Assembly: GCA_016926955.1 (NCBI GenBank)
Contig: JAFGNN010000055.1
Location: 1-30,162, forward strand
DNA: 30,162 bases
Origin: Spirochaetales bacterium
GTDB taxonomy: Bacteria; Spirochaetota; Spirochaetia; Treponematales; UBA12059
Direction: 5' to 3'
Both the position numbers and the translations under genes were made by a program. The notes under the pieces are model-generated. The model saw only the letters and a program-made list of their open reading frames with translations. It did no database searches and had not been told where the DNA came from. Shown here piece by piece: positions 1-24,539 of the stretch (its first letter is position 1; each line of letters opens with the position of its first letter).

Positions 1-354
1 CGGCGCCGCGACCTGGCCGCCGGCGTAGCCCGACTCGACGTCGACCACGCCCGCCAGTTCCTCGTAGACCGCTTCGAGGCACCAGAAGCAGCCGCCGCCT
101 AAGACGAGTTCCTTGAAGGCAGAAGGGTCGGACACGGTGTACTCCTTTCCGAGGGGAGCCGGGTTCAGGAGGGCGTTGCGGGCGGCGAGGCGCTCCGCGT
201 CGTCCGCCTGAGCGCTCTCCGCGACGGCGGATCCGGGCGCGCAGGCCATGAGCACGGGGACGGCGAGGATGGCCGCAAGGACGGTTCGCAATCGCGATCG
301 CCGAAACTCGCTTCCCGCCGGCGCCGCTCCCTGGCTTTTTATGAGCGAAATCAT
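1..354 (-). CDS. msrA: Peptide methionine sulfoxide reductase MsrA, 3'-truncated by the window edge. It is predicted to be secreted or a lipoprotein (signal peptide with an L-M-A-C lipobox).
   Basis: The minus-strand translation gives ...[26 protein letters not shown]... followed by [28 protein letters not shown], which matches the MsrA GCFWC/SGY.GG active-site signature. The ATG at 354 has no SD; an alternative ATG at 249 would remove the signal peptide. This ORF is not in the supplied track because it runs off the window edge. Confidence 0.65.
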
Positions 355-398
355 AAACTAAAGATAGCTACGCGCGCGCCTTCCGGCAAACGCCTGGC

Positions 399-492
399 GG
401 TGTCACGAAGCTTCCGGGTGGCGCTGCGAACGCAGGTGTCACGAAGCTTCCGGGTGGTGTAGGGGCCCTGGTGTCACGAAGCTTCCGGGTTG
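399..492. repeat. Three tandem direct repeats of ~23 bp (GGTGTCACGAAGCTTCCGGGTGG) with a 35-36 bp period. Each contains GTGtCAC and the palindrome GAAGCTTC. The spacers carry their own small palindromes (CTGCGaaCGCAG, AGGGgCCCT). This is a candidate operator/iteron array.
   Basis: Copies are read directly at 399-421, 435-457 and 470-492 (the third has one insertion). The array lies between divergent msrA and gntR, 70-165 bp upstream of the gntR ATG. Confidence 0.6.
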
Positions 493-525
493 GCGGAAGC
501 GGCCGCACGATTTTTCCCGCGCCTC

Positions 526-554
526 GTTGACAGCTTTTCGCTCCCGGCGTACTA
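526..554 (+). promoter_or_regulatory. Sigma70-type promoter for the gntR operon: TTGACA (526-531), a 17-nt spacer, then TACTAT (549-554). The ATG at 564 is ~3 nt from the predicted TSS, so the mRNA is leaderless.
   Basis: There is a near-consensus -35/-10 with optimal spacing. No SD precedes the ATG at 564. Confidence 0.5.
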
Positions 555-563
555 TTGTACTAG

Positions 564-965
564 ATGAATAGATCAATCGTCGATCAGACGATGGAGTTCC
601 GGCTCGACACCGCGAGCGGCTTGCCGGTCTACCGCCAGATCATCCAGCAGATCGAGCACGCCATACTCTCCGGGCGGCTCGCGCCGGGCGACCGCCTGCC
701 GACGATCCGCGCGCTCTCGGTCGAGCTCAAGGTGAATCCCAACACCATCCAGAAGGCCTACGCCGAGCTCGAGCTGCGGGGCATCGTGTCGACCCAGGTA
801 GGGTCGGGCACCTTCGTCGCGGACGCGCCGATCGACTCGGCGGAGGATGAGCTCTTGAGCAGGATCGAGGAGCGCGTGGGGCGCTTCGTCAAGGATATGG
901 AAGAACTCGGGATCGGGCGCGAGCGCATGGTCGACCTGGTCCGCGACTTCAGGGAGGATCGATGA
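564..965 (+). CDS. GntR-family transcriptional regulator, short YtrA-like subfamily (133 aa).
   Basis: The HTH segment LPTIRALSVELKVNPNTIQKAYAELELRGIVSTQVGSGTFV is typical of the GntR wHTH. The short C-terminal domain resembles YtrA-type regulators, which usually sit in ABC-transporter operons. Its stop overlaps the next gene's start (ATGA at 962-965). Confidence 0.85.
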   Translation: MNRSIVDQTMEFRLDTASGLPVYRQIIQQIEHAILSGRLAPGDRLPTIRALSVELKVNPNTIQKAYAELELRGIVSTQVGSGTFVADAPIDSAEDELLSRIEERVGRFVKDMEELGIGRERMVDLVRDFREDR

Positions 966-2137
966 CGTTTTTCCGGAAGCTGCTGGGCGGCGGCCGCGAG
1001 TCCGCGGGCCGCGGCCCCCTCATCAAGAACGCCGGGCGCCGCCCGAGCACGCGCGACTTCGAGCTCGGCGCGGTGGGATTGGCCCTCGCCGCCCTGCTGG
1101 TCGCATTCTCCGTCGCCGCCCGACTCCTTTCCGGGACGCATCCTTCTCCCCTGGCCTTCGGCGCCCTGCTGGGCGCGCCGATCCTGGCGGCCGCGACGAT
1201 GACGCTCTTCCCGCGCTGGAGCGCGGCGGTCAAATTCGTCCTCCTCGCCCTCGTGGCGAGCGCTGCTTGGGCGTCCCTCGGCGCGGCCGGCGCGGACGCG
1301 GGCCTGGCGCTGGCATTCGCCGCGGTCGGCGCCTTCGTGGCGCCCTCGGTGCAGCGCCTGGCCGAATGGGAACGGGGCATCGTGCTGCGTTTCGGCAAGT
1401 TCCGGCGCGTCCGGGGGCCGGGGCTTTTCGTCCTCTTCCCCGTGGCCGACAAGCTGGCCGAGACGGTGGACCTGCGCATCCGCGTGACGGACTTCTCCGC
1501 CGAGACGACGCTAACGCGCGACTCGGTGACCGTCACGGTGGACGCGCTCTGCTTCTGGCTGGTGTGGGACGCGGAAAAGGCGGTGCTCGAGGTCGAGGAC
1601 TACGAGGAGGCGGTGATCCTCTCGGCCAAGACCGCCCTGCGCGCCGCGGTGAGCAAGCACGACCTCTCGGTCTTCCTCGAGTCGGGCGAGACCATCGAGG
1701 AGCGGATCCGCGCCGAGGTGGACCGCAAGACCACGGACTGGGGCGTGACGGTGCAGCACATCGAGATCACCGACATCCAGATTCCCGAACAGCTGCAGGA
1801 TTCCCTGAGCCGCCTCGCGCAGGCGGAGCGCGAGAAGAAGGGACGCATCCTGCTCGCGGAGGCGGAGATCGAGATAGCCAAGCGCTACGAGGAAGCCGCG
1901 CGCGTCTACGCGGCCAACCCGACGGCGCTGAAGCTCAAGAGCCTCTCCATCCTCAACGAGGGCCTCAAGGCGGGCAACTCGATGATGCTGGTCCCCGACT
2001 CCATCACCGAGGAACTCAAATCGAACGACATTTTCGGCCTCCAGGCGCTCAACGAGCTCCGGAGGGACGAACAGGCATCCGCTGGCAAGGGAACGAAGAA
2101 AGCCGCCCCGGACGGGCGCGGCAAGGCAAGGAGCTGA
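962..2137 (+). CDS. Membrane-anchored SPFH/band-7 (stomatin/prohibitin-like) protein, 391 aa.
   Basis: An N-terminal ~130 aa with several hydrophobic helices is followed by an SPFH core (GIVLRFGKFRRVRGPGLFVLFP...DLRIRVTDFSAETTLTRDSVTVTVDALCFWLV...) and a coiled-coil AQAEREKKGRILLAEAEIEIAKRYEEAARVY. Translation is coupled to gntR. Confidence 0.8.
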   Translation: MTFFRKLLGGGRESAGRGPLIKNAGRRPSTRDFELGAVGLALAALLVAFSVAARLLSGTHPSPLAFGALLGAPILAAATMTLFPRWSAAVKFVLLALVASAAWASLGAAGADAGLALAFAAVGAFVAPSVQRLAEWERGIVLRFGKFRRVRGPGLFVLFPVADKLAETVDLRIRVTDFSAETTLTRDSVTVTVDALCFWLVWDAEKAVLEVEDYEEAVILSAKTALRAAVSKHDLSVFLESGETIEERIRAEVDRKTTDWGVTVQHIEITDIQIPEQLQDSLSRLAQAEREKKGRILLAEAEIEIAKRYEEAARVYAANPTALKLKSLSILNEGLKAGNSMMLVPDSITEELKSNDIFGLQALNELRRDEQASAGKGTKKAAPDGRGKARS

Positions 2138-2139
2138 AC

Positions 2140-2829
2140 ATGGCGATCCTCAAGCTATCGAAGATCCGCAGGATCTACCGCAAGGGCGACAACGAGGTGG
2201 TGGCGCTCTCCGGCCTCGACCTCGAGGTCGAGAAGGGCGAATTCACCGCGGTGGTGGGCCCCTCGGGCTCGGGCAAGACGACCTTGCTCAACATCATCGG
2301 CTGCCTCGACTCTCCCACCTCGGGCGAGGTGGTCTACGACGGCACGCCGCTCAAGGCGCTCGGCGAGAAGGCGCTGGCGGACTACCGGAAACGCCACGTC
2401 AGCTTCGTGTTCCAGTCGTACAACCTGATTCCCGTGCTGACCGTGCGCGAGAACGTCGAACTGCCGCTGGTCATCGAGAAGCGCCTCAAACCCGCCGAGA
2501 TCAAGGCGCGGGCGCTCGAGGTGATCGCGGAAGTAGGGCTCGCCGACAAGGCCGACCGCTTCCCGCGCGAGCTTTCCGGCGGCCAGGAGCAGCGCGTGGC
2601 CATCGCGCGGGCCTTGGTCAAGGAACCCTACGTGATCCTGGCGGACGAACCGACGGCCAACCTCGACTCGCACACCGCCGAGGAGATCGTGGAGCTCATG
2701 CGCAAGGTCAACGCGGAGCGCAAGACCACCTTCATCTTCTCGACGCACGACAAGCTGGTCATGCAGCACGCGCGCCGCGTGGTGACCATACGCGACGGCG
2801 AGCTCGTCTCGGACGAGCGCAAGGAGTAG
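2140..2829 (+). CDS. ABC transporter ATP-binding protein of the LolD/MacB/FtsE type (229 aa).
   Basis: It has Walker A GPSGSGKTT, the signature LSGGQEQRVAIARAL, Walker B ILADEPTANLD and the H-loop FSTHD. The start ATG at 2140 is 2 nt after the SPFH stop. The track's upstream extension to 1267 is an Arg/Gly-rich artefact. Confidence 0.9.
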   Translation: MAILKLSKIRRIYRKGDNEVVALSGLDLEVEKGEFTAVVGPSGSGKTTLLNIIGCLDSPTSGEVVYDGTPLKALGEKALADYRKRHVSFVFQSYNLIPVLTVRENVELPLVIEKRLKPAEIKARALEVIAEVGLADKADRFPRELSGGQEQRVAIARALVKEPYVILADEPTANLDSHTAEEIVELMRKVNAERKTTFIFSTHDKLVMQHARRVVTIRDGELVSDERKE

Positions 2830-2832
2830 GCG

Positions 2833-4092
2833 ATGGGCACCCTCTGGAAGATCGCGTTCCGCAACGTGCTCAGGCACAAGCGGCGCACGGCGATCACGGG
2901 CGTGGTCCTCATGTTCGGGATCGGCGTCTACATCATGTTCGGCTCGATGCTCGCCGGCATGGACCGCATGAGCATCGACTCGATGGTCGACTACTCGACG
3001 GCCTCGGCGAAGGTCACGAGCCCAGGCTACCTCGAGACCATGTCCGGCACGCCGCTCGACTTCGGGCTCGAGAATCCGGCCGCCATCGAGCGGGCGGCGC
3101 TGGCCGCGGGCGCGAGCGGCACCACGCGGCGCACAGCCTTCGTGGGGCAGCTCTCCAACTACGTCGACGCCCTGCCGGTCATGGCTTTCGCCGTCGATCC
3201 GGCGACGGACGGGACGGTGTTCGCGCTGGAGCGCGCGGTCGACGCGGGCGAATGGTTCCCGGGCCGCGAGGCGAACGAGATCGTGCTGGGCAGGAAGCTG
3301 GCGGCCGAGCTCGGGCTTTCGGTCGGCGACTGGGTGGTGCTTTCCGGCCGCACCCGGCCCGGCGCCGAGAACGCCGACGAGTTCGTCGTGGTCGCCACCG
3401 TGGACGCCGCGGACCCGCAGGTATCGAACTCGGGCGCCTACGTGAGCTACGGGGCCGCCGAGGAATTCCTCGAGCTCGACGGGCTCGTCACCGAGCTCGA
3501 CCTGGCCCTGCCGCGCGCGGCCACGCTCGACCGCGCGCTCGACGAGGCGGACGCGCTGGCCGCCGCCCTGCGCGCGGAGTTCCCGGAGCTCTCGACGCGC
3601 TCGGTCAAGGACCAGGCCGCCGACTACCTGGCCATGCGGAACATGAAGAGCAAGTTCAGCTACGTGATGATGCTCGTGGTGCTGCTGATCGGCGGCGTCG
3701 GCATCGTCAACACCATATTGATGGCGGTCTACGCCCGCGTGAAGGAGATCGGCGTGCTTCGCGCCTACGGCATGCTGGGCCGTGACGTGAAGTCGCTCTT
3801 CACCATCGAGGGCGTCATCGTCGGCGCCATCGGCTCGCTGGCCGGCGCCCTGTTCGGCCTCGCGCTCACCTGGTACATGGTGGAGTACGGGATACCGGTC
3901 GGCGTCTTCTTCGCGGACGGCGGCCTCGACATGGGCAACCTGCCCCTGACGGGCAGCATGTACGGCGAATGGAAGCCGCTCGACATCGTCGTCGGCTTCG
4001 TCTTCGGCGTGGTCGTCTCGTTCATCGCGGCGCGGATTCCCGCGCGGCGCGCGGCCCGGCTCGAAGTGACCGACGCCCTGCGCTTCGTGTAA
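2833..4092 (+). CDS. FtsX-family ABC permease, LolC/LolE/MacB-like (419 aa).
   Basis: The N-terminus MGTLWKIAFRNVLRHKRRTAITGVVLMFGIGVYI is a typical FtsX/MacB TM1. A ~230-aa periplasmic domain is followed by a C-terminal three-TM FtsX domain. RBS AAGGAG lies at 2821-2826. Confidence 0.85.
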   Translation: MGTLWKIAFRNVLRHKRRTAITGVVLMFGIGVYIMFGSMLAGMDRMSIDSMVDYSTASAKVTSPGYLETMSGTPLDFGLENPAAIERAALAAGASGTTRRTAFVGQLSNYVDALPVMAFAVDPATDGTVFALERAVDAGEWFPGREANEIVLGRKLAAELGLSVGDWVVLSGRTRPGAENADEFVVVATVDAADPQVSNSGAYVSYGAAEEFLELDGLVTELDLALPRAATLDRALDEADALAAALRAEFPELSTRSVKDQAADYLAMRNMKSKFSYVMMLVVLLIGGVGIVNTILMAVYARVKEIGVLRAYGMLGRDVKSLFTIEGVIVGAIGSLAGALFGLALTWYMVEYGIPVGVFFADGGLDMGNLPLTGSMYGEWKPLDIVVGFVFGVVVSFIAARIPARRAARLEVTDALRFV

Positions 4093-4103
4093 GGGAGGAT
4101 AAG

Positions 4104-5339
4104 GTGCGCATACTCGACATGGCCTTGCGGAACCTGGGGCGGAACCACCGGCGCACGGCGCTGGCGGCGAGCTCCGTGTTCTTTGCCATCATGCTGATAC
4201 TCATCATGAACGGCCTCGTGAACGGCTTCATGGAATCGATGGTCCGCAACTACACCAAGAACGACTCGGGCCACGTGCATATCGCGACCGAGGGCTACCG
4301 CGCCCGCGAGCGCTTCATGCCCGTCGACGAGAACGTCCCGGACTCGACCGCGCTGGCCGCGGCCATCAAGGACCTGGACGGCCTCGAGGGCCGCGTGGAG
4401 ATCGTGGCGGAGCGCATCCGCTTCGGCACCCTGCTCTCTTCCGGACCCGCCACCAAGGCCGCCTTCGGCATGGCCGGCGACCCGGAGCTCGAGACCGAGC
4501 TGGTCATGCTCGACCGGAGCATCGTCGAGGGCCGCTACCTCACGGGCTCGGGCGACGCGGTGCTCGGCGCCGGGCTCGCGGCGGACCTCGGCCTCACGGT
4601 GGGCGACACGCTGAAGGTGGTGACCCAGCGCGCGGACTACGGGATCGGCTTCAAGCGCTTCACCATCGCGGGCATCTTCAAGACCGGCGTCAACACGCTC
4701 GACGGCAACCTCTTCCAGATCGGCCTCGACGACGCGCGCGAGCTCCTGGCCATCGAGGGCGCGCAGCAGCTGCTCGTCATGCTCGACCGTTCGGACTTCG
4801 CGCCGGAGGCGGCGCGGATCATCGAGGCGGCCCTGCCCGGGCTCGGCTTTTCGGGCCTGACGGCGCGACCCTGGCAGCAGGATTCGTTCGGCGGCTTCAT
4901 CACGCTCGTCTCGGGAGTGTACTGGTTCATGTACCTGATCTTCGCCGCGCTCGGCGCCTTCATCATCACCAACGTCATGATGATGGTCGTGCTCGAGCGG
5001 AAGCGCGAGATCGGCATCATGAAGTCGATGGGCATGCCGCGCCTCGAGCTGCTCGGCCTCTTCCTGCTCGAGGGCAGCCTCATCGGGCTCGCGGGCTCCT
5101 TCCTCGGCTCGGCCGTCGGCACCCTGCTCAACTGGGTCTTCTCGAAGATCGGCTTCGACATGACCGACGCGCTGGCCGGCTTCTCGTGGCCGCTCGACAA
5201 CATCATCTACCCGCGGGTCGACCTGCTGCAGGCCCTGCTTTTCGTGGGCCTCGGCACGCTCGTCGCCGCGGCCATGTCGTACCTGCCCTCGCGGAGCGCC
5301 TCGCGCATGGATCCCGTCGAGGCCATCCGCTCGGTGTAG
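4104..5339 (+). CDS. Second FtsX-family ABC permease, LolC/LolE-like (411 aa).
   Basis: A GTG start at 4104 is preceded by GGAGG (4094-4098); an alternative ATG lies at 4119. It has the same architecture as the upstream permease, with C-terminal motif ...ASRMDPVEAIRSV. Confidence 0.85.
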   Translation: MRILDMALRNLGRNHRRTALAASSVFFAIMLILIMNGLVNGFMESMVRNYTKNDSGHVHIATEGYRARERFMPVDENVPDSTALAAAIKDLDGLEGRVEIVAERIRFGTLLSSGPATKAAFGMAGDPELETELVMLDRSIVEGRYLTGSGDAVLGAGLAADLGLTVGDTLKVVTQRADYGIGFKRFTIAGIFKTGVNTLDGNLFQIGLDDARELLAIEGAQQLLVMLDRSDFAPEAARIIEAALPGLGFSGLTARPWQQDSFGGFITLVSGVYWFMYLIFAALGAFIITNVMMMVVLERKREIGIMKSMGMPRLELLGLFLLEGSLIGLAGSFLGSAVGTLLNWVFSKIGFDMTDALAGFSWPLDNIIYPRVDLLQALLFVGLGTLVAAAMSYLPSRSASRMDPVEAIRSV

Positions 5340-5352
5340 TCGACGATACCGA

Positions 5353-5474
5353 GAAACCACGGAGGCACGGAGACACGGAGGGAGGAGGGAGAAAACGGTC
5401 AAGAGCTTCCGATCACTCTTGAGCGAGAATTCCATCCTCCCTCTTTTCTCCCGATCTCCTTGCCTCCGTGGTTC
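5353..5474. repeat. Imperfect palindromic intergenic element of ~120 nt. The left terminus is GAAACCACGGAGGCACGGAG and the right terminus CCTCCGTGGTTC. It has a purine-rich arm (GGAGGGAGGAGGGAGAAAA), a pyrimidine-rich arm (TCCTCCCTCTTTTCTCCC) and a central TCAAGAG/CTCTTGA. It lies inside the operon between permease 2 and the LolA_like gene.
   Basis: The inverted repeats were read directly. The same terminal 19-mer recurs at 24364-24380 and 24398-24416, and inverted at 24522-24539. Confidence 0.65.
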
Positions 5475-6234: not shown

Positions 6235-7367
6235 AAGGCAACTCGGTCTCCGTCGCGGTTCTCGCGGCGGTCTTCGTCGTCGGCACCTTCCAGCTCGCTG
6301 CGCAATCCGGAGCGCCGGAGTTCGGCGGCGTTTTCTCCCGGAGCGACGCGGCCCTGTACGTTGCCGCCGGGGAAGTCGACTCAGGCGACTTCTCGTGGAC
6401 TGCGGCAAGCGCGCTCGAGCTCGCTCTCCGCGCGGGGGGCGATAGCGCGCGGGCCGAGGCCGCGTTCACGGCGACCGTGCTGAACGGCTCGGCGGCGGAG
6501 GCGATGATCGCGCTCGCGACCTCGATGTCGCTGCCGTCGGGTTCTCCTTTCGCCTCAGGCGGGGCGCTCGTCGTCCCGCTCGCGTCCGATCCGGCCTCCG
6601 TCCTGCTCCTCGAGCTCCGCTCGCTCCAGCTCAGGCTCGACCTGGGCGAGGCGCGGCTCCGCGCGGGCAGGCAGGTGGTCAATTTCGGGCGGGGCCAAGC
6701 CTTCAGCCCGGCGGACGTTTTCGCGCGGCGCGACCTTTCCGGGCTTTCCCCCGCGCGCGCGCCGGTGGACGCGCTCAGGCTTTCGGGCCCCTTCGGGCAG
6801 TTCGGCGGCTGGGACCTCGTGGCCGCGCCGCGCGCCGAAGCGGAGGACGGGACCTACGCGGCGCGCGCCTGGGCCTGGGCCTTCGGGGTGGATGGCGGCC
6901 TCATCGCGGGCCGCGACGGCGGACGCGGAGACTGGCTTGCCGCGGCGGACGTCCAGTTCGACCTCGGCGCCACCTTCCGCGGCGAGGTCCTGCTGCGGTA
7001 TTCAGATTCGGGGGACGCGCGCGTTTCGGCCATGGCCGGCCTCGACTGGTCGCTCGGCGACTTGCTCATGGGGGCCGAGTACTACCGGAACGGCGACGGC
7101 GCGGCGGGCGCGGTGCCGCTTTCGGGGGCTCCGGGCGCGGCTTCGGAACACTACCTTTTCGCGACGCTCGGCTGGCAAGCGGGCGATTTCGCGTCACTCT
7201 CCGCCAGCGCGCTCGCCGAGCTCGACGAAGGGCTCTGGGCGCCAGCCCTGGCCCTCACGGTAGACGCGACGCAGAGCGCCGACCTGGTCGTCGCCCTGCG
7301 GGGCCTCGCCGATTCTGGCGGCGTCGTATCGGCTGCCCTCGCGGCGACGCTCGAGCTTTCGTTCTGA
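6231..7367 (+). CDS. Putative outer-membrane beta-barrel protein (378 aa) with a signal peptide and a C-terminal Phe.
   Basis: The start overlaps the upstream stop (ATGA at 6231-6234). It has the signal MKGNSVSVAVLAAVFVVGTFQLAAQS, Gly/Ala/Ser-rich alternating segments and a terminal ...ATLELSF (an OMP-type C-terminal aromatic). No family was recognised. Confidence 0.55.
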   Translation: MKGNSVSVAVLAAVFVVGTFQLAAQSGAPEFGGVFSRSDAALYVAAGEVDSGDFSWTAASALELALRAGGDSARAEAAFTATVLNGSAAEAMIALATSMSLPSGSPFASGGALVVPLASDPASVLLLELRSLQLRLDLGEARLRAGRQVVNFGRGQAFSPADVFARRDLSGLSPARAPVDALRLSGPFGQFGGWDLVAAPRAEAEDGTYAARAWAWAFGVDGGLIAGRDGGRGDWLAAADVQFDLGATFRGEVLLRYSDSGDARVSAMAGLDWSLGDLLMGAEYYRNGDGAAGAVPLSGAPGAASEHYLFATLGWQAGDFASLSASALAELDEGLWAPALALTVDATQSADLVVALRGLADSGGVVSAALAATLELSF

Positions 7368-8476: not shown

Positions 8477-9021
8477 TACTGGATGAGCCTCAGCACACCG
8501 GCGAGCACCCTGAGCTTTTCCGCATCGCCCGCGCGCTCGGCGAGCTCGCGTAGGTCGCCCGCCTTCGAGATGGCCGCCATGCCCCGCGCCAGGCGGTTCA
8601 GGACGCCCCAGCGCTCGGTCCCGAGCAGGGCGCGGATGGCCAGGCCCCGCTCGATCTGTACCATGCGGATGCGGTACTCGGCCTCGAGGCTGGCGCGCAC
8701 GGTCTTCTCGACCGCGGCCCGGTCCGGCTCGTCCTCGAGAAGGAGCCGCGCCAGGCGGGCCTGCAGTTCCCGGATTTCCGCGCGCGCGCGCTCGAGCTCC
8801 CTGGCGCCCTTGCCCGAAAGCTCCGCGATACGCGCGGCCTCCTCGTCGGTGAGCGCGAGCAGGCGGAAATCGCGGCGCGCCTCGGCGATGCCGTAGCCCG
8901 GGTCCCGGTACTGCGCCGGCACGGCGGCGGGTCCCGGCCCCTGGGCCGCGAGCAGGGCCGGCGCCGCGAGCAACACGGCGGCGACCATCATTCCCTTCAT
9001 ATTCTTTCCGTTCACATTCAT
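8476..9021 (-). CDS. Periplasmic Spy/CpxP-like (LTXXQ-type) helical protein, first gene of the ECF operon (~181 aa).
   Basis: It has the signal peptide MNVNGKNMKGMMVAAVLLAAPALLAAQ. Helical repeats LTDEEAARIAELSGKGARELERARAEIRELQARL resemble LTXXQ periplasmic chaperone/sensor motifs. GGAGG sits 9 nt upstream of the ATG at 9021; the alternative ATG at 9030 has no spacer. Confidence 0.45.
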   Translation of the reverse strand: MNVNGKNMKGMMVAAVLLAAPALLAAQGPGPAAVPAQYRDPGYGIAEARRDFRLLALTDEEAARIAELSGKGARELERARAEIRELQARLARLLLEDEPDRAAVEKTVRASLEAEYRIRMVQIERGLAIRALLGTERWGVLNRLARGMAAISKAGDLRELAERAGDAEKLRVLAGVLRLIQ

Positions 9022-9139
9022 GCCGTTCATCCTCCGCCCATTGGTCGCCGCGGACGCGCCCCGGGTTCCCTCAAAAAGCGCATATCCCCCACGCATTGTA
9101 GCGCGACGGCGGCGCGTCTGGAAATTCACGGGCCACCTG

Positions 9140-12706: not shown

Positions 12707-13090
12707 TCAGCGGCGCCTGGCCTCCATGGCGGCGGCAATTTTCTCTATGGTCTCCGCGGAGAGGTAGTGCTCGATGCGGCAGGCGTCGCGCTCGGCGGTC
12801 TCGGGGCTGACGCCCAGGAAGTCGCGGAGGAAGCGGGTGAGCAGCTCGTGGCGCCTGCGGATCTCGGCGGCGTGGTCGAGGCCCGCGGGGGTAAGGGCGA
12901 CGTCGCCATAGGGCTCATGCACCACGAGGCCGCGGCGCTCGAGCTCATGCAGGGCCGTGTGCACCGAGGGCTTGGACACCGAGAGAACTCGCGCGATGTC
13001 GGTCACCCGCCCCTTCGCGCCCCGCTCCCGGATCGAGTCTATGGCCTCCAGGTACATCTCGAGGCTTTCGGATAGCCGCTCGTCCGCCAC
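12707..13090 (-). CDS. DtxR/MntR-family metal-dependent transcriptional regulator (127 aa; no C-terminal SH3-like domain).
   Basis: LSESLEMYLEAIDSIRERGAKGRVTDIARVLSVSKPSVHTALHELERRGLVVHEPYGDVALTPAGLDHAAEIRRRHELLTRFL is a DtxR-type wHTH plus metal-binding/dimerisation helix. The GTG start at 13090 has GGGAGG 7 nt upstream. Only the 3' 384 nt of the 504-aa track ORF is real. Confidence 0.8.
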   Translation of the reverse strand: MADERLSESLEMYLEAIDSIRERGAKGRVTDIARVLSVSKPSVHTALHELERRGLVVHEPYGDVALTPAGLDHAAEIRRRHELLTRFLRDFLGVSPETAERDACRIEHYLSAETIEKIAAAMEARRR

Positions 13091-13239: not shown

Positions 13240-13315
13240 GAAATTCCTTGACAGCTTCCGAGGACCCCCCTACGCTACTTTCCATAGCAACCCCCAAAGT
13301 CCCCAAGGAGGTCCC

Positions 13316-24363: not shown

Positions 24364-24539
24364 GAACCACGGAGGCACGGCAGAGCCTTCCCAATGAGAA
24401 CCACGGAGGCACGGAGCTGGGGAGAAAAGAGGGAGCAAGAAAAGGTCGAGGTAAAAGGTGGGAAGGTCGACTCCTTCCCCACAACTTTCCTCCCTCCTCC
24501 CTCCTCTCTCTTCCCTCTTCCCTCCGTGCCTCCGTGGTC
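24364..24539. repeat. Second member of the GAACCACGGAGGCACGGAG-terminated palindromic element family. Terminal 19-mers sit at 24398-24416 and inverted at 24522-24539, with an extra direct partial copy at 24364-24380. It has a central GGAAGGTCGAC/TCCTTCC and a 38-nt pure polypyrimidine tract (24488-24525). It lies in the ptsI upstream region.
   Basis: This was read directly. The arms are purine-rich and pyrimidine-rich as in the element at 5353-5474. Confidence 0.65.

Follow-up and report, generated by a model that had tools for sequence, protein, structure and literature searches.

Class I activator sites, such as the marboxes of MarA, SoxS, and Rob, follow strict rules of orientation and distance. 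Leaderless mRNAs of autoregulated repressors include lambda cI from PRM and tetR of Tn1721. Repetitive extragenic palindromic (REP) sequences, bacterial interspersed mosaic elements (BIMEs), and other small dispersed repeats form a further class of short bacterial sequences (Delihas, 2011, cited in PMC3488235). Putative mobile promoters, including miniature inverted-repeat transposable elements (MITEs) that carry partial promoters, e.g., Correia elements and enterobacterial repetitive intergenic consensus (ERIC) elements, were reported by Matus-Garcia et al. (2012; PMC3488235), with a spirochete example from Treponema brennaborense. Bacterial YtrA regulators are described as autorepressors whose genes head operons that include an ABC transporter (PMC6746942). 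The palindromes of YtrA regulators are "typically 24 bp long" and have distant half-sites (PMC6746942). Here, we describe a 23-bp repeat that occurs three times between the divergent genes msrA and gntR, the latter for a YtrA-like regulator, in a 30,162-nt contig of the NCBI "Spirochaetales bacterium" metagenome-assembled genome (MAG). This contig, at its full length, is referred to below as the window. We lean, with limited confidence, toward reading the repeat as a portable upstream binding-site module for a putative trans-acting factor at the adjacent promoter, which is here the msrA promoter. The gntR gene has a likely operator of its own.

The repeat resembles marboxes in being an asymmetric site of ~20 bp that keeps a single orientation and a constant distance to the downstream -35 elements of otherwise unrelated sigma-70 promoters, several of these elements being weak (TTGCCN). 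Unlike marboxes, to which it has no sequence similarity, its sites are near-identical and form tandem arrays, and the binding factor is putative. As with REP and BIME sequences, the repeat is short, intergenic, lineage-specific, and high in copy number, and its clusters vary in size; it differs from them in having no stem-loop, in its direct clusters, and in its fixed promoter-proximal offset. Like putative mobile promoters (PMC3488235), it places homologous sequence before non-homologous genes, is shared between related genomes, and includes a case of a copied -35 segment (L015a and L015b; L-numbers denote retrieved loci or contig stretches of relatives). In contrast to those promoters, the conserved unit measures only about 20 bp, whereas that study required 50 nt at 80% identity. 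It also lies upstream of the core promoter, in arrays of differing period, with no terminal inverted repeat (TIR), hairpin, or transposase. The threshold of ≥50 nt at ≥80% identity is reached by arrays (91 nt at 82%; 115 nt at 99%), but not by single 20-bp copies. Dispersal, orientation, spacing, lability, and conservation were computed directly; we infer protein binding, the direction of regulation, and both transcription start sites (TSSs).

The Repeat Array

The repeat, GGTGTCACGAAGCTTCCGGGT(G/T)G, is present in three copies, R1 to R3 (Table 1). R1 and R2 are identical (GGTGTCACGAAGCTTCCGGGTGG), and R3 (GGTGTCACGAAGCTTCCGGGTTG) has a single mismatch to them, a T at position 22. The start-to-start spacing is 36 nt and then 35 nt. 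With up to three mismatches allowed, the window contains three matches vs. 0.00 expected (100 shuffles), and there is no further copy on either strand of its 30 kb. Repeat matching thereby confirmed the copies, coordinates, and 35-36-nt period given in an initial annotation of this DNA, together with the GTGTCAC and the 8-bp palindrome GAAGCTTC that it had recognized in every copy. The flanking genes are also as named there: a GntR gene with the short C-terminal part of the YtrA type, and a divergent msrA.

The two spacers (CGCTGCGAACGCA and TGTAGGGGCCCT, 12-13 nt each) have no mutual similarity, while the cores match at 23/23, 23/23, and 22/23. Perfect cores with unrelated spacers argue for selection or conversion acting on the core. 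Spacer 1 weakly resembles a spacer at L057 and one at L015. The small spacer palindromes pointed out in the initial annotation (TGCG-AA-CGCA and GGGCCC) exist, but are trivial at 68% GC and are not kept in relatives.

Table 1. Features of the msrA-gntR region and the downstream operon in the window (strand "." = unassigned).
Feature	Coordinates	Strand	Remarks
msrA (PF01625)	1..354	-	3′ end cut by window edge; candidate leaderless ATG 354-352, predicted start
msrA -10, TATCTT	361..366	-	17 nt from -35; invariant in all msrA-linked orthologs
msrA -35, TTGCCG	384..389	-	TTGCCC in relatives
R1	399..421	-	nearest msrA promoter; minus-strand reading CCACCCGGAAGCTTCGTGACACC
Spacer 1 (422-434), R2, and spacer 2 (458-469)	422..469	.	
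R2	435..457	-	same sequence as R1
R3	470..492	-	1 mismatch
T-tract, TTTTT	511..515	+	12-16 nt upstream of gntR -35
gntR promoter	527..555	+	TTGACA 527-532, 17-nt spacer, TACTAT 550-555; promoter scan
Palindrome, 24 bp	554..577	.	ATTGTACTA-GATGAA-TAGATCAAT; overlaps -10, predicted TSS, and start codon
gntR, YtrA-like regulator (PF00392)	564..965	+	133 aa; predicted leaderless ATG at 564
SPFH/Band7 (962-2137), ABC ATPase (2149-2829), FtsX/MacB permeases (2833-4092 and 4104-5339)	962..5339	+	Shine-Dalgarno starts

The copies are direct repeats, and the unit is asymmetric overall, with only 7-8-bp palindromes inside each copy. On neither strand does it fold better than shuffled sequence (free energies of -0.1 and 0 kcal/mol; z-scores of +1.4 and +1.0). 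The z-scores of the whole array (-1.2 and -2.1) merely reflect pairing between the GAAGCTTC palindromes.

A short intergenic repeat with variable spacers and small palindromes could also be a REP/REPIN-like element or a miniature array like the clustered regularly interspaced short palindromic repeats (CRISPR). We give this almost no credence: the unit has no potential to fold as a single strand, the copies are mostly direct rather than in inverted pairs, spacers in the family run from 0 to 34 nt, and many of the copies stand alone. The window has neither a cas nor a RAYT gene, and Rfam gave no match, either for positions 1-3000 at E ≤ 1 or for the whole window at the gathering threshold. CRISPR arrays combine regular 23-47-nt repeats and unique spacers (about 21-72 nt) with a leader and adjacent cas genes. 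Here the spacers are 12-13 nt, many copies elsewhere are solitary, and the window has no cas domain, in agreement with the initial annotation, which had dismissed a CRISPR. The stable hairpin of a REP or REPIN is missing at the folding energies given above. MITEs of the Correia or ERIC type, with TIRs, target-site duplications, and a length of about 100-400 bp, do not fit an 18-23-bp unit with no TIR. Plasmid or replicon iterons, which cluster at an origin beside a rep gene, are likewise a poor fit to dispersed copies in a chromosomal housekeeping context with no plasmid or phage match. Transposase and integrase genes are also absent from the window.

Dispersal of the Repeat Family

In a scan with one genome per species, the 19-mer GGTGTCACGAAGCTTCCGG matched 18 stretches, 14 of which are in a single related MAG, QR_Bin.15 (Spirochaetes bacterium, GCA_018262985.1). 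The other four are lone, chance-level matches in unrelated taxa. QR_Bin.15 was examined as 8-kb pieces and the genome of the window as 30 kb. With mismatches allowed, the QR_Bin.15 stretches contain about 22 clusters, which are solitary copies or arrays of 2-6. This related genome thus has many of the further sites that the initial annotation proposed to look for, none of them beside a GntR gene. The 47 copies give the consensus GGTGTCACGAAGCTTCCGGGyGG, in which the core spans about 20 bp; because exact 19-mers served as seeds for this sample, perfect copies are over-represented. Array periods across the family are 18, 21, 34-37, 46-48, and 57 nt. These share no helical phase, which speaks against the cooperative operator array proposed in the initial annotation.

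In a scan of metagenomes, the only additions were contigs from this lineage, which came from anaerobic digesters and activated sludge; 29 of the 38 matches were discarded as a chance match within a gut-bacterial ABC ATPase gene (GC about 0.53). There was no match in viral contigs and plasmids, and a literature search for the motif returned only an unrelated cloning primer. The window has no synteny with the repeat loci of QR_Bin.15. The sub-motif CCGGAAGC showed a modest enrichment, possibly from codon usage, and was not used. As a variant of dispersed promoter-region repeats, this one is undescribed and restricted to one group of uncultured spirochetes.

Position Relative to Promoters

On the opposite strand, the repeat unit reads CCCGGAAGCTTCGTGACAC(C). 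Past its GTGACAC end, many clusters show about 10 nt, TTGNCN, 17-18 nt, TANNNT, 6-10 nt, and an ATG; by our reading, L005 also fits (GAGACA-17-TATGCT-7-GTG). A TTG occurs 9-10 nt past this end in 10/25 clusters vs. 0.36 expected (maximum of 3 in 2000 shuffles). At the other end, the CCCGG side, the 25 clusters have no peak in TTG spacing. Nearly every cluster is intergenic, and about 15/20 have the GTGACAC end directed toward a gene's 5′ end, as judged from crude gene calls on the repeat loci. A divergent locus (L007/L039/L046) carries two inverted copies, each of which faces its own promoter. Many of the repeat-associated -35 hexamers are weak (TTGCCN) vs. the perfect TTGACA of the gntR promoter.

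The minus strand of the window has the same arrangement: the end of R1 (399-400), 10 nt, TTGCCG (389-384), 17 nt, TATCTT (366-361), 6 nt, and ATG (354-352). Because this geometry equals that at other repeat loci, we assign the array, on the grounds of its position and orientation, to the msrA promoter rather than to that of gntR. The initial annotation had offered control of msrA by a second factor as a fallback, and this stands in outline, as orientation and spacing are those of the copies at other genes. All msrA-linked orthologs keep the minus-strand -35, -10, and ATG, followed by an in-frame open reading frame (ORF) with a lipoprotein-type signal and an MsrA domain. The product in the window has such a signal at its N-terminus and the MsrA motif GGGCFWC. 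The ATG is 6 nt after the -10 with no Shine-Dalgarno site in six loci, and alternative internal TTG or ATG starts exist. The msrA promoter is apparently leaderless, with a predicted TSS and start codon.

In the QR_Bin.15 msrA-gntR locus (L065, about 3790-3850), a 21-nt tandem repeat lies between the msrA promoter/ATG and the signal peptide, and would encode PEGQSKL about eight times. Its copy number differs in L062 and L064. This tract encodes a variable peptide repeat at the N-terminus or else is a repeat in a 5′ leader, and in the latter case the leaderless start would be wrong in the QR_Bin.15 lineage.

An asymmetric site of ~20 bp with one orientation and a fixed distance to the -35 is what is found at class I activator sites, and it is this geometry that leads us to favor an upstream-site module. 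The GTGACAC(C) end would point at a sigma-70-type promoter with a -35 that starts about 10 bp away, and the proximal copy would cover roughly -46 to -68. A putative DNA-binding protein on the repeat would modulate the adjacent promoter in a class-I-like geometry, and the effect is probably activation. One QR_Bin.15 copy (L017) precedes a gene for an AraC/GyrI (Rob-like) regulator, which is suggestive of a candidate factor.

Gain, Loss, and Copying of Arrays

We compared orthologous msrA-gntR or gntR upstream regions at GntR protein identities of 97, 93, 83, 71, 66, 59, and 58%. An exact look-up of the window GntR in the contig index returned no record, and orthologs were used instead. The window has three copies in this spacer, and its relatives at 93-97% (L057-L061) have two degenerate ones (CCGTCACGAAGCTTCCGGA and GTGTCGCGAAGCTTCCGGG), with spacer 2 and the R3 unit absent. 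L063 has one vestige, and L062, L064, and L065 have none. No repeat was found at the gntR locus of more distant relatives, including Sediminispirochaeta smaragdinae and Brucepastera. In the QR_Bin.15 locus, the msrA promoter is kept and the array is absent. A similar difference exists between L017 and the 95% identical L052. In L017, a 188-nt block with a three-copy array lies upstream of a peptidase gene and starts exactly 10 nt from its -35; in L052 the block is absent and the promoter is kept. Both comparisons indicate that promoters pre-exist, and that the gain or loss of an array takes place at a fixed position. The L017/L052 indel comprises more than a bare array, since the block also contains a GC-rich hairpin (CCCCGGGG...CCCCGGGG, L017 about 6965-7040) right after the AraC/GyrI stop codon. 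As to a target-site duplication, the indel has just ambiguous GC-rich microhomology.

The array units are 35 nt at L015, with similar spacers, 47 nt at L017, and 21/42 nt at L014. Relative to L032, to which it is about 90% identical, L002 carries a tandem duplication of 57 nt. By their sequence, most arrays consist of tandemly duplicated units whose length is arbitrary, and arrays would grow by such duplication. The two L015 arrays, 4.8 kb apart, have 115 bp in common at 99% and then diverge. The common segment consists of the repeats, the 10-nt spacer (N10), the -35 TTGCCT, and 12 further nt. This identity through the -35 indicates that an array can be copied elsewhere together with its -35, and such copying between loci would add to the spread of the repeat. 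The window array is 82% identical to the L015 arrays over 91 nt, spacers included.

These copies raise the possibility of a mobile partial promoter, in which an array with an outward-facing -35, like those at the ends of Correia or ERIC elements and some IS elements, propagates and creates or replaces a resident -35. Homology between copies would then not always end at the GTGACACC end. The L015 segment is of this kind, L014 and L017b agree at 9/10 nt of N10 plus TTGAC, TTTGCCGGAAGG is common to the window and L017a, and the match of the window array to L015 points the same way. The concept itself is documented (PMC3488235). We nevertheless consider it quite unlikely as an account of the family: N10 and the -35 hexamer are not conserved family-wide, the -35 is present in the empty site (L017 vs. 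L052; window vs. L065), and there are no TIRs or clear target-site duplications.

Alternatively, the repeat may be a selfish or neutral short dispersed repeat that is spread by slippage, duplication, and recombination and has no regulatory role. Its accumulation upstream of promoters would then reflect insertion tolerance, or recombination at promoter-proximal microhomology. Several of our observations favor this and weigh against a binding-site module. The 19-20-bp core is near-identical at >25 sites, which is more typical of recently propagated repeats than of transcription-factor sites that evolved independently, although the argument is softened by seeding the sample with exact 19-mers. 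A -35 at the canonical offset is missing from about half of the clusters, and there are clusters at gene 3′ ends or beside a terminator (L002a, L003, and L004). The downstream genes are functionally mixed (an aminotransferase, a PHP esterase, peptidases, a dehydroquinate synthase, GGT, a radical-SAM protein, a KdpD-like sensor, and others); regulon logic is not obvious, and we found no coherent regulon among them. Promoters persist without the repeat in relatives, its presence differs even between 95%-identical strains, and array periods are neither uniform nor helically phased. Still, tolerance alone predicts neither a one-ended 9-10-nt offset to the -35 nor an orientation bias. The cores of the window and L005 arrays are perfect while spacers within the same array are at random similarity, which again suggests core selection or conversion, and the unit has no hairpin, TIR, or transposase. 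On balance, we regard a selfish or neutral repeat as doubtful, but as the main rival of the binding-site module that we favor and as deserving some weight beside it.

In a stronger form of that module, a lineage-specific factor would recruit pre-existing promoters by the insertion of one or more copies exactly 10 bp upstream of the -35, a copy-and-paste activating site, with the number of copies in an array tuning output. The factor might be a protein such as the Rob-like AraC/GyrI regulator, whose own gene follows a copy. An RNA-guided binder is conceivable because the 19-20-bp identity is near-perfect. We think this form unlikely.

The gntR Promoter and Its Predicted Operator

The initial annotation had interpreted the three repeats as a cooperative operator array for autoregulation by the YtrA-like GntR. 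The repeats do adjoin the gntR promoter, 34 nt upstream of its -35, and the GT-N-AC core GTGTCAC is superficially like GntR-family half-sites. We now find this interpretation very improbable. The repeat occurs in about 20 other clusters and is thus not restricted to targets of this regulator; no GntR homolog was found in the 8-kb stretches with repeat clusters (tblastn E > 0.7). At orthologous gntR promoters, the repeat is degenerate or absent where the protein is 83-97% identical, and copies fall from 3 to 2, 1, and 0 in orthologs at 97-71% identity. The repeats lie at about -70 to -165 from the predicted gntR TSS, outside the core promoter, and no consistent spacing exists on the CCCGG side of arrays. 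Finally, the repeats are asymmetric, direct units, whereas a YtrA operator is a palindrome that spans about 24 bp and has distant half-sites (PMC6746942), and such a palindrome is conserved at 554-577.

The palindrome has the consensus ATTGTACTA-gATGaa-TAGTACAAT, and the right arm in the window has two mismatches. It is centered on the ATG of gntR, and its right arm constitutes codons 2-4. The pattern ATTGTACTA-N6-TAGTACAAT has a single occurrence in the window vs. 0 expected. The promoter TTGACA-17-TACTAT, claimed in the initial annotation, was recovered by a promoter scan and is conserved: every ortholog has TTGAC(A/T), about 17 nt, TA(C/T)TAT, and then TTGTACTAg-ATG-aaTAGTACAA. The orthologs that keep this promoter and palindrome reach from high-GC MAGs to S. 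smaragdinae and Brucepastera parasyntrophica. The T-rich tract at 511-515 has a counterpart at the same position upstream of gntR in relatives, and may be an UP-like element of the gntR promoter.

Like described cases of autoregulation in the YtrA subfamily (Rigali, 2002; PMC6746942), this palindrome is 24 bp long with GT/AC half-sites and lies over the core promoter of the regulator's own ABC operon. Because the palindrome, and not the repeat, is conserved with the GntR gene, we take it as the likely YtrA/GntR autoregulatory operator, with binding predicted. Through it, the regulator would control itself and the SPFH/ABC operon separately from the repeats. Unlike known YtrA operators, its center is a leaderless start codon and its right arm encodes residues 2-4; also, distant orthologs have a second palindrome of 16 bp, ATTGTAnTAGTACAAT, between the -35 and the -10. 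We found this compact palindrome, which has no 6-nt center, alongside the 24-bp palindrome over the ATG in L066 (2230-2270), L068, L069, and L071 (upstream of position 3001). By this comparison, the window and its close relatives have lost it.

The leaderless start of gntR, another proposal of the initial annotation, is well supported at the sequence level, with a predicted TSS. The ATG is always 8 nt after the -10 with no Shine-Dalgarno site, the palindrome and leaderless arrangement are kept in nine orthologous loci, and in L066 this ATG is the sole possible start. The N-terminus MN(S/R/N)T is found in 19/22 orthologs, and the residues after it are variable. Such conservation is expected if codons 2-4 also have to serve as the right arm of an operator. 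As in lambda cI and Tn1721 tetR, the predicted TSS falls on the start codon, and the likely operator lies across the promoter; the differences are that gntR heads a YtrA-type operon of Spirochaetes, and that its downstream genes have ordinary Shine-Dalgarno sites. Most other genes in the window have such sites too, which indicates that leaderless initiation is specific to certain first genes and not genome-wide.

Automatic gene calls in orthologs (L058-L065) start GntR at internal ATGs, giving 124 and 129 aa instead of 133 aa. MsrA is likewise called from an internal ATG there, giving 219 aa. Both are probably due to leaderless starts without a ribosome-binding site. The sequence TTGACAGCTT is found both in the gntR -35 region (527-536) and in a promoter-like site, TTGACAGCTTCCG, at 13245-13275, about 55 nt upstream of the cstA start (13316). 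This sharing could be chance.

Other Sequences in the Window

The gene content of the window is housekeeping only. After the second FtsX gene (5358-5470), a purine-rich tract, ACCACGGAGGCACGGAGACACGGAGGGAGGAGGGAG, is followed at 60 nt by its inverted complement, and the two make up a long inverted repeat. The tract is 86% identical to one in QR_Bin.15 (L002 3101-3149), a second shared repeat family, and a related tract (TCCTCCC five times / CCTCCGTG) is at 24488-24536. On the minus strand at 12710-13075, beside cstA, is a DtxR-type iron-dependent repressor domain (PF01325/PF02742) at the C-terminal end of a long ORF. The long ORF around this domain is a high-GC artifact. An AT-rich 15-bp tandem repeat at 8988-9030 was considered as a regulatory element and rejected, as it is coding on the minus strand and belongs to the N-terminus of a Metal_resist protein.

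Implications

Callers of genes often mis-start genes of the gntR and msrA kind, and the 124- and 129-aa GntR and 219-aa MsrA calls are probably truncated. For the widespread spirochete YtrA/SPFH/ABC operon, our analysis predicts a GntR operator that is a 24-bp palindrome over a leaderless start codon. This operator would constrain the protein residues MNST, a constraint at the DNA level that is visible in the protein sequence. The natural alleles of one promoter with 0, 1, 2, and 3 copies of the repeat make a clean, testable system. If the repeat is a functional module, the bacterium could rewire many unrelated promoters fast by inserting one and the same 20-bp site at a set distance from each. 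Base-by-base evolution of sites would not be needed, and changes in copy number between strains would act as a tuning knob. A copy-and-paste activating site, if true, would be a bacterial analog of the transcription-factor sites spread by transposable elements in eukaryotes.

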